This document shows, piece after piece, positions 10,183-11,444 of a DNA stretch of 64,000 nt; the stretch's first letter is position 1; the number at the start of each line of letters is the position of its first letter. Origin of the DNA: a virus (Duplodnaviria; Heunggongvirae; Uroviricota; Caudoviricetes). The notes beneath the pieces are model-generated. The model searched no databases. It had not been told where the DNA came from and saw only the letters and a list, made by a program, of their open reading frames with translations. The DNA lies in the IMG/VR virus record IMGVR_UViG_2684623171_000009; one strand, 5' to 3'. Position numbers and translations under genes: made by a program.

Positions 10183-10823
10183 GTGAATTAGCTATCAGGC
10201 TTCAATTGTCGCTGGCATTCGCATCAAAGGAGAATGAGATGACCACTTTTACAAAAGAGCAGTTAATCAGTCATGTTAGTGAAAATGTAAAGGCGATGAA
10301 ATTTGCAGTAAAACAGACAGCATTCAAAAATTCTCTCGAGGCAATTGAGTTGGATTTAGCACTGGCCCTTGTTGCTCAGGCTTCGCTGGAAGCAGAGCCC
10401 GTGCTTTATATGAATCGATTTACCGGAAAGACATTCTCACTGGAAGAGCAACCCGGTGCTGATAAGGAACCGGAAATATACGTGCCGCTATATGCTGCCC
10501 CGCCAGACAGCGCCGCCATGCTTCAGGCTGGAAACTTTCGGGAAAAAAAGGGTTCGTCAACCAATAATTTTCGGGAAATCTCGGAAACGTCAACCAACTA
10601 TCCGGTAACTCTGGATGATTGGATAAGCTGTAGTGAGCGAATGCCGGATGATGGTCAGCACGTAATTATTTTATGTGATGGCGCATTCGTTCTTTATGCG
10701 CAATATCGAGACGGTGAGTTTTTTGATGTAGTCCGTAATGGTGATGAATTTTTCGAAACACAGAGCCGCAATGTAACCGACTGGATGCCGCTACCAGAAC
10801 CGCCGCAGGAGGTGCGCCAATGA
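10179..10823 (+). CDS. DUF551-domain prophage protein
   Basis: C-terminal WISCSERMPDDGQHVIIL...DWMPLPEPP pattern typical of DUF551; start codon uncertain. Confidence 0.55.
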   Translation: MSELAIRLQLSLAFASKENEMTTFTKEQLISHVSENVKAMKFAVKQTAFKNSLEAIELDLALALVAQASLEAEPVLYMNRFTGKTFSLEEQPGADKEPEIYVPLYAAPPDSAAMLQAGNFREKKGSSTNNFREISETSTNYPVTLDDWISCSERMPDDGQHVIILCDGAFVLYAQYRDGEFFDVVRNGDEFFETQSRNVTDWMPLPEPPQEVRQ

Positions 10824-10903
10824 TCTGGCCTGAAGCCTTTGCAATTACAGGCGTTGCTATAGCTATTGATTTTTTAGTATATGTTATTTGTCGGTGGGGG
10901 TAA
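10820..10903 (+). CDS. Tiny hydrophobic peptide (27 aa)
   Basis: MIWPEAFAITGVAIAIDFLVYVICRWG; ATGA overlap with the upstream stop; conserved at 42376..42459. Confidence 0.35.
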   Translation: MIWPEAFAITGVAIAIDFLVYVICRWG

Positions 10904-10938
10904 AAACGTTCGCCGGGATTCACACCAAAGGAGGGAAT

Positions 10939-11043
10939 ATGTCGGATGATATTTCACTGGCAATGGAAGGTGCGCTGGCTGTTATTGCTGTTGTGGGCGT
11001 TTACTGCCTGGTTGTGTTTTTGATGGATCGACTAGGGAACTGA
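10939..11043 (+). CDS. Small hydrophobic peptide (34 aa)
   Basis: MSDDISLAMEGALAVIAVVGVYCLVVFLMDRLGN; strong RBS AAAGGAGGG; flanked by direct repeats GGGTAAAAACG. Confidence 0.4.
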   Translation: MSDDISLAMEGALAVIAVVGVYCLVVFLMDRLGN

Positions 11044-11288
11044 ATTCATTACGATATGGGAATTCCCATATCGGGTAAAAACGGTTTGCGGTAAAGCGAG
11101 AGTTAAGTAGAATTGCTGCGGGTGCTTGAGGCTGTCTGCCTCGGGCATGCCACCGTAAGGCAGACAGAGAAAAGCCCCAGTTAACATTACGCGTCCTGCA
11201 AGACGCCTAACATTAATCTGAGGCCAATTTCATGCTAGACACATGTAGGTTAGCCTCTTACGCGCCGAAAGGCAAGGAGAAGCAGGCT

Positions 11289-11444
11289 ATGAAGCAGCAA
11301 AAGGCGATGTTAATCGCCCTGATCGTCATCTGTATTACCGTCATAGTGACGGCACTGGTAACGAGGAAAGACCTCTGCGAGGTACGAATCCGAACCGGCC
11401 AGACGGAGGTCGCTGTCTTCACAGCTTACGAACCTGAGGAGTAA
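11289..11444 (+). CDS. hokD: Hok/Gef-family type I toxin (51 aa), HokD/RelF-like
   Basis: MKQQKAMLIALIVICITVIVTALVTRKDLCEVRIRTGQTEVAVFTAYEPEE; structured leader with a 10-bp hairpin upstream. Confidence 0.85.
   Translation: MKQQKAMLIALIVICITVIVTALVTRKDLCEVRIRTGQTEVAVFTAYEPEE

Follow-up and report, generated by a model that had tools for sequence, protein, structure and literature searches.

The 64,000-nucleotide stretch of viral DNA from IMG/VR record IMGVR_UViG_2684623171_000009 (Caudoviricetes), hereafter the window, contains two lambdoid prophages, A and B, each carrying one complete hok/mok/sok locus downstream of a very short open reading frame (ORF) of 27 codons, which in prophage A is followed by a second one of 34 codons. 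Taken together, the observations described below make it likely that each locus is a hok/mok/sok moron preceded by a genuine 27-codon gene, and that the additional 34-codon ORF of prophage A is also a genuine gene, which forms with its neighbor an old two-gene allele. The hok/sok part is already known and adds nothing new; it confirms the presence of several hokW-type loci in O157. The peptides add a modest novelty; one of the micro-genes was known from ribosome profiling (Ribo-seq), and the other was essentially unannotated. A 521-bp query around the hok site was 100% identical to many E. coli O157:H7 chromosomes. For the comparative analyses, IMG/VR loci were gathered by three patterns, directed to the hok promoter/leader, the start of the 34-codon gene, and the 27-codon gene, and species-representative genomes were also scanned with the pattern of the 27-codon gene. 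The micro-genes and the genes they overlap are arranged as follows:

10239..10823, plus strand: DUF551 gene of prophage A (Pfam PF04448, E=2e-20; RefSeq WP_000206793.1)
10820..10903, plus strand: 27-codon gene of prophage A, A-type allele MIWPEAFAITGVAIAIDFLVYVICRWG, an ORF with the Shine–Dalgarno (SD) sequence AGGAGGT upstream, not in RefSeq
10930..10934, plus strand: SD sequence GGAGG of the 34-codon gene, within AAAGGAGGGAAT
10939..11043, plus strand: 34-codon gene MSDDISLAMEGALAVIAVVGVYCLVVFLMDRLGN, identical to RefSeq WP_001278450.1 (hypothetical protein) and contained in XECs145 of strain Sakai
41822..42379, plus strand: DUF551 gene of prophage B, whose stop overlaps the 27-codon ORF
42376..42459, plus strand: 27-codon gene of prophage B, B-type allele MTWPEAFTTVGIAMAVALVVYSICRWG, whose stop directly abuts the putative hok promoter

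A preliminary description of this DNA had noted a gene for a 27-aa hydrophobic peptide overlapping the DUF551 stop in both prophages, and this arrangement was readily recovered, the ATG of the ORF and the TGA of DUF551 being merged as ATGA in each. The overlap (rarely replaced by TAATG) was nearly always present across the contexts examined, with a GGAGG located 7–12 nt upstream, and at least five unrelated C-termini precede the 27-codon gene at the 3′ end of the upstream gene, namely ...PEPPQEV(N/R)Q (DUF551), ...NIEQKVNQ (L0139 of phage 933W), ...AEDILR, ...ATQGENQ, and ...HEEGDK. The combination of ATGA overlap and SD is the predicted signature of a translationally coupled terminal cistron. 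A fusion between DUF551 and the 27-aa peptide, hinted at by protein clusters, was considered and rejected as a clustering artefact, as the sequences show none, and a frameshift joining the two was likewise set aside, since no conserved slippery site was found across the upstream contexts. For this latter reason, termination–reinitiation is preferred over programmed frameshifting.

The coding character of the 27-codon ORF emerges from the comparison of diverged alleles, in which the proportion of synonymous differences (pS) reaches 0.6–0.78, near saturation, and that of nonsynonymous differences (pN) 0.19–0.30 in the ORF's own frame. The ratio of nonsynonymous to synonymous substitution rates (dN/dS) was ~0.13–0.3 in this frame and ~0.5–2.5 in the other two. 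The alleles of the window are themselves diverged, with 28 differences in 81 coding positions (27 codons, stop excluded), pS 0.70 and pN 0.24. The ORF is intact in ~98% of 241 occurrences, which comprise 205 copies of 27 codons, 33 of 25 codons (early-stop variants), and three that are disrupted or extended; a separate allele, MSRPDAF, bears an in-frame deletion of two codons (6 bp). Residues W3, P4, A6, G11, Y21, I23, C24, R25, and W26 of the peptide are near-invariant. Together, these features indicate that the 27-codon ORF appears to be a real coding gene under purifying selection.

Within the searched phage collection and the species-representative genomes, the 27-codon gene was almost exclusively found in Escherichia/Shigella lambdoid phages. 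The pattern scan of the species-representative genomes produced mostly chance matches in GC-rich genomes, and only three real ones, in E. coli, S. flexneri, and an Escherichia sp. By tblastn, it was detected in 90 deposited phage genomes, mostly Shiga toxin (Stx) phages and other Escherichia/Shigella phages, where it commonly lies unannotated in the ea/b region near xis-int; a few GenBank submissions carry it as a 27-aa hypothetical protein. It is a gene that is unannotated in RefSeq and in most phage records, yet under clear purifying selection. Neither the 27-aa nor the 34-aa peptide matched a significant family in Pfam, PHROGs, NCBIfam, or PADLOC. Nor are the peptides tied to hok as its specific leaders: in 41 loci the 27-codon gene has no hok downstream, an intrinsic terminator often being found there instead.

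The extra 34-aa peptide gene of prophage A and its strong ribosome-binding site (RBS) were also borne out. The block AAAGGAGGGAAT(A/G)TG is retained even in the most diverged allele, that of locus L116, and the RBS region is unstructured (z=0.39). In comparison with the window copy, changes in the gene's own frame were distributed as 8:3 (synonymous:nonsynonymous) in L132, 5:1 in L005, and 10.5:9.5 in L116 (pS 0.43, pN 0.14), and this synonymous excess reverses in the other two frames. An exhaustive HMMER search over 1.84 billion representative proteins returned seven matches, all at least 79% identical, and no remote homologues, so that the 34-aa family is evidently very narrow. A full-text literature search with the peptide sequences and the WP accession gave no match.

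The 34-aa sequence is held exactly within XECs145, an ORF for which published Ribo-seq data exist (Hücker et al. 2017, PMC5597208). In lysogeny broth (LB), XECs145 exhibited 79 reads per kilobase per million mapped reads (RPKM) in the transcriptome and 346 in the translatome, with a ribosome coverage value (RCV) of 4.35 and a coverage of 0.99 (PMC5597208, S2 Table), whereas the RCV in brain heart infusion (BHI) was 1.14. According to this published Ribo-seq, the 34-codon gene is translated in vivo. The same study predicted an inner-membrane protein with one transmembrane helix, gave no function for XECs145, and mentioned neither the 27-codon gene nor a link to hok. XECs145 was given there as 54 codons from a far-upstream start; the 34-codon form of the window is favored because its SD and ATG are conserved and the RefSeq annotation agrees. 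The shortest ORF in the S2 Table has 93 nt, and the 27-codon ORF falls below that apparent length floor; ribosome occupancy has thus been published for the 34-codon gene alone of the two (PMC5597208). The 34-codon ORF likewise appears to be a real coding gene, and the suggestion that both tiny ORFs are genes was upheld, both behaving as coding.

Downstream of the micro-genes, the components of the hok/mok/sok loci were located as listed:

11085..11113, plus strand: putative hok promoter of prophage A, read from the sequence, with −35 TTTGCG/TTGCGG at 11085-11091 and −10 TAGAAT at 11108-11113
11120..11540, plus strand: hok mRNA of prophage A, with leader hairpin, mok/hok, 3′ element, and terminator (Rfam RF01794)
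11232-11444, plus strand: mok frame of prophage A, 70 codons, sharing the frame of hok; 90% identity to 933W MokW
11289-11444, plus strand: hok toxin gene of prophage A, 51 aa (PF01848, E=2.4e-23; NCBIfam Hok family; RefSeq 'hokD')
11240->11170, minus strand: putative Sok-type antisense RNA of prophage A, ~71 nt, over the mok start region, transferred from the sokW misc_RNA of 933W
42501..42900, plus strand: hok mRNA of prophage B, almost identical to 933W hokW, with mok, hok, and a 3′ fbi-like element at ~42873-42890
42613-42825, plus strand: mok frame of prophage B, 70 codons, 100% identical to MokW
42670-42825, plus strand: hok toxin gene of prophage B (PF01848 match), whose Hok is 100% identical to HokW
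42621->42551, minus strand: putative Sok-type antisense RNA of prophage B, the sokW equivalent, transferred from the sokW annotation of 933W

A Hok-family toxin had been noted in both prophages, and both loci indeed match PF01848 and Rfam RF01794. The Hok ORFs also match PHROG 251 and NCBIfam NF007279 (E=7.8e-13, below that model's strict cutoff). The RF01794 scores were 116.9 bits at 11120-11294 and 113.5 bits at 42501-42675, for a gathering score of 59. Although this model is named 'sok antitoxin', it matches the plus strand and thus marks the hok mRNA leader rather than the antisense RNA; the true Sok is the reverse complement of only part of the RF01794 span, and pipelines using the model will put 'sok' on the wrong strand. 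The structured leader described previously was found with slightly corrected coordinates: the hairpin of locus A occupies 11130-11169, within arms at 11121-11141 / 11158-11178, and contains a perfect 10-bp core at ~11132-11141 / 11158-11167. From the start of the Rfam model at 11120 and the known 5′ end of the R1 hok mRNA, we infer the hok +1 at G11120.

The hok mRNA of locus A contains a perfect 9-bp complement between its two ends (11117-11125 / 11501-11509, the 3′ element spanning ~11492-11509), and in the minimum free energy fold of 11120-11535 the two ends are paired with each other (z=-8.4). Such pairing represents the tac/fbi fold-back, by which hok mRNA is kept inactive. Further downstream comes an intrinsic terminator (11513-11530) with a T-run behind it. 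The 3′ untranslated region at 11453-11534 (plus strand) also gave a sub-threshold Rfam match to isrK (27.7 bits vs a gathering score of 50, E=7.6e-4), and isrK, an Hfq-binding small RNA (sRNA) of Salmonella Gifsy-1, may be derived from, or related to, the hok 3′ end.

On the opposite strand, the predicted Sok of locus A has a single-stranded tail at its 5′ end, followed by a long hairpin and a U tail (-31.3 kcal/mol, z=-5.4), and that of locus B adopts a like fold with a U tail (-30 kcal/mol, z=-5.0). A candidate Sok promoter for locus A consists of −35 TTGCCT (11275-11270) and −10 TAACCT (11252-11247) on the minus strand, 17 nt apart, a geometry shared with the R1 Sok promoter. The hok DNA of A, B, and 933W aligns without gaps through the regulatory region, with compensatory changes in the leader stem (CTGTCTG/CAGACAG vs CTATCTG/CAGATAG) and in the 3′ hairpin. 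The GenBank record of 933W annotates sokW, mokW, and hokW at homologous positions, and the antisense RNA that had been anticipated at these loci is therefore one that is annotated in a near-identical locus and has been shown experimentally (PMC8621323): HokW is toxic, sokW neutralizes it, partly through RNase III and Hfq, and sokW is rapidly lost on prophage induction (Takada et al., PMC8621323). The function of Hok at locus B is known to the extent that the protein is identical to HokW. By family membership, the mok frame, Sok, and the structured mRNA, both loci are, as judged from their sequences, hok/sok type I toxin–antitoxin (TA) systems.

The closest known system is hokW-mokW-sokW of the Stx2 phage 933W (Sp5 of Sakai; the prototype being R1 parB). 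Mok and Hok of locus B are identical to those of 933W, and the two loci hardly differ in their DNA between the promoter and the 3′ fold-back element; locus A represents a 90%-identical allele with the compensatory stem changes. The promoter, leader hairpins, in-frame mok, Sok promoter inside mok, Sok hairpin with U tail, and fbi/tac pairing are all shared. The systems differ in position, the window loci lying in the nin-type region (DUF551...hok...DUF968-RusA-Q) and the 933W locus in the b/ea region behind L0139. Unlike 933W hokW, locus A ends in an intrinsic terminator of its own, and the gene that follows it is another one. The two window loci are named 'hokD' by the Prokaryotic Genome Annotation Pipeline (PGAP), in contrast to hokW in 933W.

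The origin of the 34-codon gene was approached through the junctions between the micro-genes and hok, which include three short sequence elements:

10898..10908, plus strand: direct repeat 1, GGGTAAAAACG, holding the last codon and stop of the 27-codon ORF
11052..11073, strand-neutral: perfect 22-bp palindrome CGATATGGGAATTCCCATATCG, between the 34-codon gene and the putative hok promoter, abutting repeat 2
11073..11083, plus strand: direct repeat 2, GGGTAAAAACG, at the left edge of the conserved hok module, an A-tract just upstream of the −35

The preliminary description had proposed that direct repeats bracket the extra unit, and 11-mers were indeed found at both edges of the 175-bp difference between A and B. 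GGGTAAAAACG occurs exactly twice in the window, 175 bp apart, and its only copy with one mismatch (GGATAAAAACG) lies at 42454-42464, the homologous junction of prophage B. A local alignment of the peptide-gene halves is matched in score by 25 of 1000 shuffles; the 11-mer repeat alone is therefore only modestly beyond chance, and what truly counts is that it stands at either edge of the A/B indel. In the alignment of the insertion flanks, put forward as a check, B corresponds to A without the 175 bp that separate the repeats. No empty-site twin of the A allele in its O157 arrangement was found among the collected loci.

The distribution of the 34-codon gene suggests an allelic arrangement. It occurs at this one site only, in more than 120 loci, and every sufficiently flanked locus shows the 27-codon gene, the 34-codon gene, and then the palindrome and hok (in three loci, a remnant of the hok promoter). 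The arrangement follows the allele of the 27-codon gene, the A-like allele (...FLVYVICRWG) going with the pair in 135/136 and the B-like allele (...VVYSICRWG) standing single in 110/111. The sole B-like allele with a 34-codon partner is that of L116; otherwise the B-like allele directly abuts hok or other DNA. The L116 pair has TGGTTATAAACATCTGG in place of repeat 1 and is flanked by a DUF551 gene and a hok promoter and leader that almost match those of the window; the pair therefore acts as a single exchangeable module of two genes. Across all hok contexts, homology starts at AAAACGG, coinciding with repeat 2, which itself varies among lineages (GGGCAAAAACG, GGGCGAAAACG, GGGTGAAAACG). These patterns argue against a mobile or recent cassette and would make the 34-codon gene the second half of an old two-gene allele. 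The 11-bp repeats may be a scar left by an old event of microhomology-mediated insertion or deletion, in either direction, which is the simplest origin for them.

The idea that one peptide gene was duplicated as a cassette from the other found no backing, since 332 of 2000 composition-preserving shuffles score as well as the comparison of the 34-aa with the 27-aa peptide, leaving no similarity detected beyond composition, and at the DNA level the two genes share the 11-mer only. The related proposal of a small inserted unit would regard the 175-bp unit (SD, 34-codon gene, palindrome) as a mobile or recent cassette flanked by a duplicated 11-bp target, GGGTAAAAACG. In its favor are the perfect repeats at the edges of the A/B difference and the single copy at the junction of prophage B; the unit also ends in the palindrome, and a near-identical 22-mer with similar flanks inside a KilA-N gene (in L128) hints at the involvement of the palindrome in illegitimate recombination. 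Set against this are the confinement to one site after the A-type 27-codon gene (135/136), the lack of an empty-site counterpart among the collected loci, the A/B divergence of that gene at 28 of 81 coding positions, and the absence of a transposase and of any terminal inverted repeats visible in the sequence of the unit. Furthermore, the repeat copies differ in other lineages, repeat 1 is absent from the diverged L116 pair, and both repeats may be kept alike by independent constraint, one as the edge of the hok module and the other as codon and stop. We hence regard a mobile or recent cassette as unlikely; the case shows how readily an old allelic arrangement, lying at a mosaic boundary, may look like a cassette that duplicated its target.

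Several points weigh against the reading of two genuine genes in an old allele next to a hok/mok/sok moron. The dN/dS estimates come from short ORFs and non-independent sequences, and the collection patterns fix a few codons, while the unconstrained interior codons 8-23 vary at all three positions (15/12/15), so that the selection signal comes from the pairwise analysis. The Ribo-seq signal of XECs145 stems from a multi-copy sequence, with 3-6 copies per O157 genome, and from uninduced cultures, in which genes distal to P_R would be expected to be silent; on the plus strand, a search for a sigma-70 promoter of the 34-codon gene found none. The ends of Sok and both promoters are transferred or inferred, and perfect 11-bp repeats exactly at the indel edges still fit a real, if old, insertion.

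The palindrome next to repeat 2, which the preliminary description does not mention, marks a mosaic boundary. As an RNA hairpin it has -16 kcal/mol (z=-4.1). Of 150 copies, 141 have the same 16-bp core, the rare variants not being compensatory. A role as intrinsic terminator was ruled out, as there is no U-run on either strand, and a repeated operator was also rejected, with no second copy in the window and the sole other copy found within a KilA-N coding sequence. This copy, matching in 21 of 22 positions and with TGAATT flanks similar to those of the window (11041-11083), lies at 4790-4812 of the IMG/VR prophage contig L128 inside a KilA-N-type gene, where it encodes ...SRDMGIPISEL...; the window frame past the stop of the 34-codon gene reads IHYDMGIPISGKN. 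The L128 copy suggests a relic of, or a hot spot for, illegitimate recombination at the palindrome. Elsewhere, the palindrome travels with the hok block, being kept in the paa and L116 contexts, and in L116 it is identical despite the diverged peptide genes.

Replacements on either side of this boundary further illustrate its mosaic nature. In L003/L004 (E. coli 2013C-3277 and Z1323HEC0355; ~636-1540), hok is directly preceded by a paa (AcfC-family adhesin) moron that has displaced the 34-codon gene except for its final ~20 nt; the palindrome and hok come next. In L116 (reverse strand, ~660-1540), a C5 cytosine DNA methyltransferase (motif FRVIDLFCGAGG) replaces the hok coding region past ...TTAATCTGAGGC, and in L132, L169, and L173 the peptide pair and the palindrome are kept while unrelated sequence replaces hok just after the promoter −10. 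In L316 (phage ArgO145, 1109-1620), a convergent type II TA pair lies downstream of the 27-codon gene, without hok. The slot downstream of the 27-codon gene can hold hok, the paa adhesin, the C5 methyltransferase, the type II TA pair, or terminators, and these contents suggest a moron hot spot. As in other lambdoid morons, hok here has its own promoter and terminator at a recombination boundary; unlike known linker sequences, the boundary is marked by a coding gene of 27 codons and, in one lineage, by the 22-bp palindrome.

In the mechanism that we propose, a constitutive promoter would yield a stable hok mRNA held translationally closed by 5′–3′ (tac/fbi) pairing and the leader hairpins. The short, unstable Sok, made from a promoter inside mok, would pair with the mok translation-initiation region and so block the translation of mok and, with it, the coupled translation of hok. 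Once Sok is lost, an event demonstrated for the identical hokW/sokW upon prophage induction, Hok would enter the inner membrane and speed lysis and phage release. No credible terminator was found to separate DUF551 from the micro-genes or these from hok, and on induction early transcripts subject to antitermination would therefore be expected to continue into hok. Such read-through would run against the convergent Sok promoter, which would fit the rapid disappearance of sokW reported on induction. Termination–reinitiation at ATGA would yield the 27-aa peptide, as the product of the terminal micro-cistron of the early-gene block, and the 34-aa peptide would be made from its own strong SD. The 27-codon gene itself would be a small module in its own right, shuffled widely among the lambdoid phages of Escherichia/Shigella.

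Both peptides consist of an acidic N-tail, a hydrophobic segment of ~19 residues, and an Arg near the C-terminus, the 27-aa peptide ending in R-W-G after the transmembrane segment. This layout suggests single-pass membrane micro-proteins, predicted to be oriented N-out/C-in. They are alike in kind to small single-pass membrane proteins such as KdpF, MgtS, AcrZ, and Pf3-coat-like N-out/C-in proteins, with which they share a length of 25-35 aa, one hydrophobic helix, an acidic N-tail, a basic residue past the helix, and the ease with which they are missed. There is no sequence relationship with these proteins, the best sub-threshold matches being compositional (KdpF, E=0.024; SecE, E=0.069). Our best guess is that the peptides are small inner-membrane modulators during early lytic growth. 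With a pairing so tightly bound to the allele, the two peptides may plausibly interact, physically or functionally. As the 27-codon gene stands in many contexts that lack hok, a connection of the peptides to Hok, although possible, has no support. That the A-type 27-aa and the 34-aa peptide form a co-adapted interacting pair belonging functionally to the hok moron seems improbable. If it were true, the pair might tune the insertion of Hok or the timing of lysis, or guard the induced cell from premature killing by Hok. More broadly, on this view, the 27-codon gene would be the founding member of a new family of terminal, translationally coupled micro-cistrons that is widespread among lambdoid phages.

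A more specific possibility is that the micro-ORFs are type I toxins or partners of Hok (co-toxins or protein-level modulators) and form with hok/sok an extended killer module. Small hydrophobic single-helix peptides do resemble type I toxins, but these peptides are net acidic (about -3 for the 34-aa one) and type I toxins are usually cationic; no TA or defence family was matched in Pfam, PHROGs, NCBIfam, or PADLOC. The association with hok can be read in both directions, as the 34-codon gene is nearly always a neighbor of hok or of what remains of its promoter (135/136 loci) and the 27-codon gene travels with hok into the b-region of 933W behind a different upstream gene, whereas the latter also stands in 41 loci without hok and three loci with the pair have lost hok. 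The co-variation of the A-type 27-aa allele with the 34-aa gene fits two interacting membrane peptides. On the minus strand, a promoter-like TTGCCA-16-CATATT (10963->10936) overlaps the start of the 34-codon gene, but such sites occur at chance level (two found, 1.2 expected), its −35 is not conserved (TGGCAA -> TGGTAA in L005), and it is not followed by an antisense terminator. The 175-bp unit has no Rfam match, and a dedicated antisense sRNA for the peptides was accordingly not detected among minus-strand promoters, terminators, and Rfam matches. With these observations, toxins or Hok partners are quite improbable. The second of the chance-level sigma-70-like minus-strand sites lies at 10904->10876, antisense to the end of the 27-codon gene.

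It is very improbable that the micro-ORFs are non-functional frames, conserved through recent ancestry or through DNA or RNA elements and accompanied by Ribo-seq noise: they are very short and lack family matches, the 27-codon ORF is missing from RefSeq and most phage records, and the 34-aa family is limited to very close relatives, but frame-specific purifying selection at near-saturated synonymous divergence, the synonymous excess in the 34-codon ORF, the in-frame 6-bp deletion allele, an SD and ATGA coupling kept behind unrelated upstream genes, the intactness of nearly all 27-codon copies, and the high ribosome coverage value of XECs145 all speak against it. As two genuine genes, both micro-genes merit annotation and are cheap, well-defined targets for small-protein studies in prophages of enterohemorrhagic E. 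coli (EHEC).

The broader neighborhood of the locus in prophage A is the early-right (nin-type) region of a lambdoid prophage. In RefSeq, its gene order is ATP-binding protein, DUF1627, DUF977, DUF551, a 105-nt hypothetical gene, hokD, a hypothetical gene, DUF968, RusA, and antiterminator Q, and this layout recurs ~31 kb downstream in prophage B. The genes that follow hok differ between the prophages and, together with the RNA elements of the window, are listed below:

4223-4274 and 35240-35291, minus strand: DicF sRNA gene, one per prophage
11612-11890: gene for a 92-aa hypothetical protein of prophage A (PHROG 1212), after the hok terminator and before DUF968
14210-14456 and 46969-47218: tRNA clusters of prophages A (three above threshold) and B (two above threshold)
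15233-15405 and 47991-48163, plus strand: STnc100-family element, one per prophage
42945-43289, plus strand: gene for a YgiW/YdeI-like secreted protein of prophage B, 3′ of hok, like L0136 in 933W

In the Rfam annotation of the window, DicF, the hok leader, the tRNAs, and STnc100 are all paired between prophages A and B.

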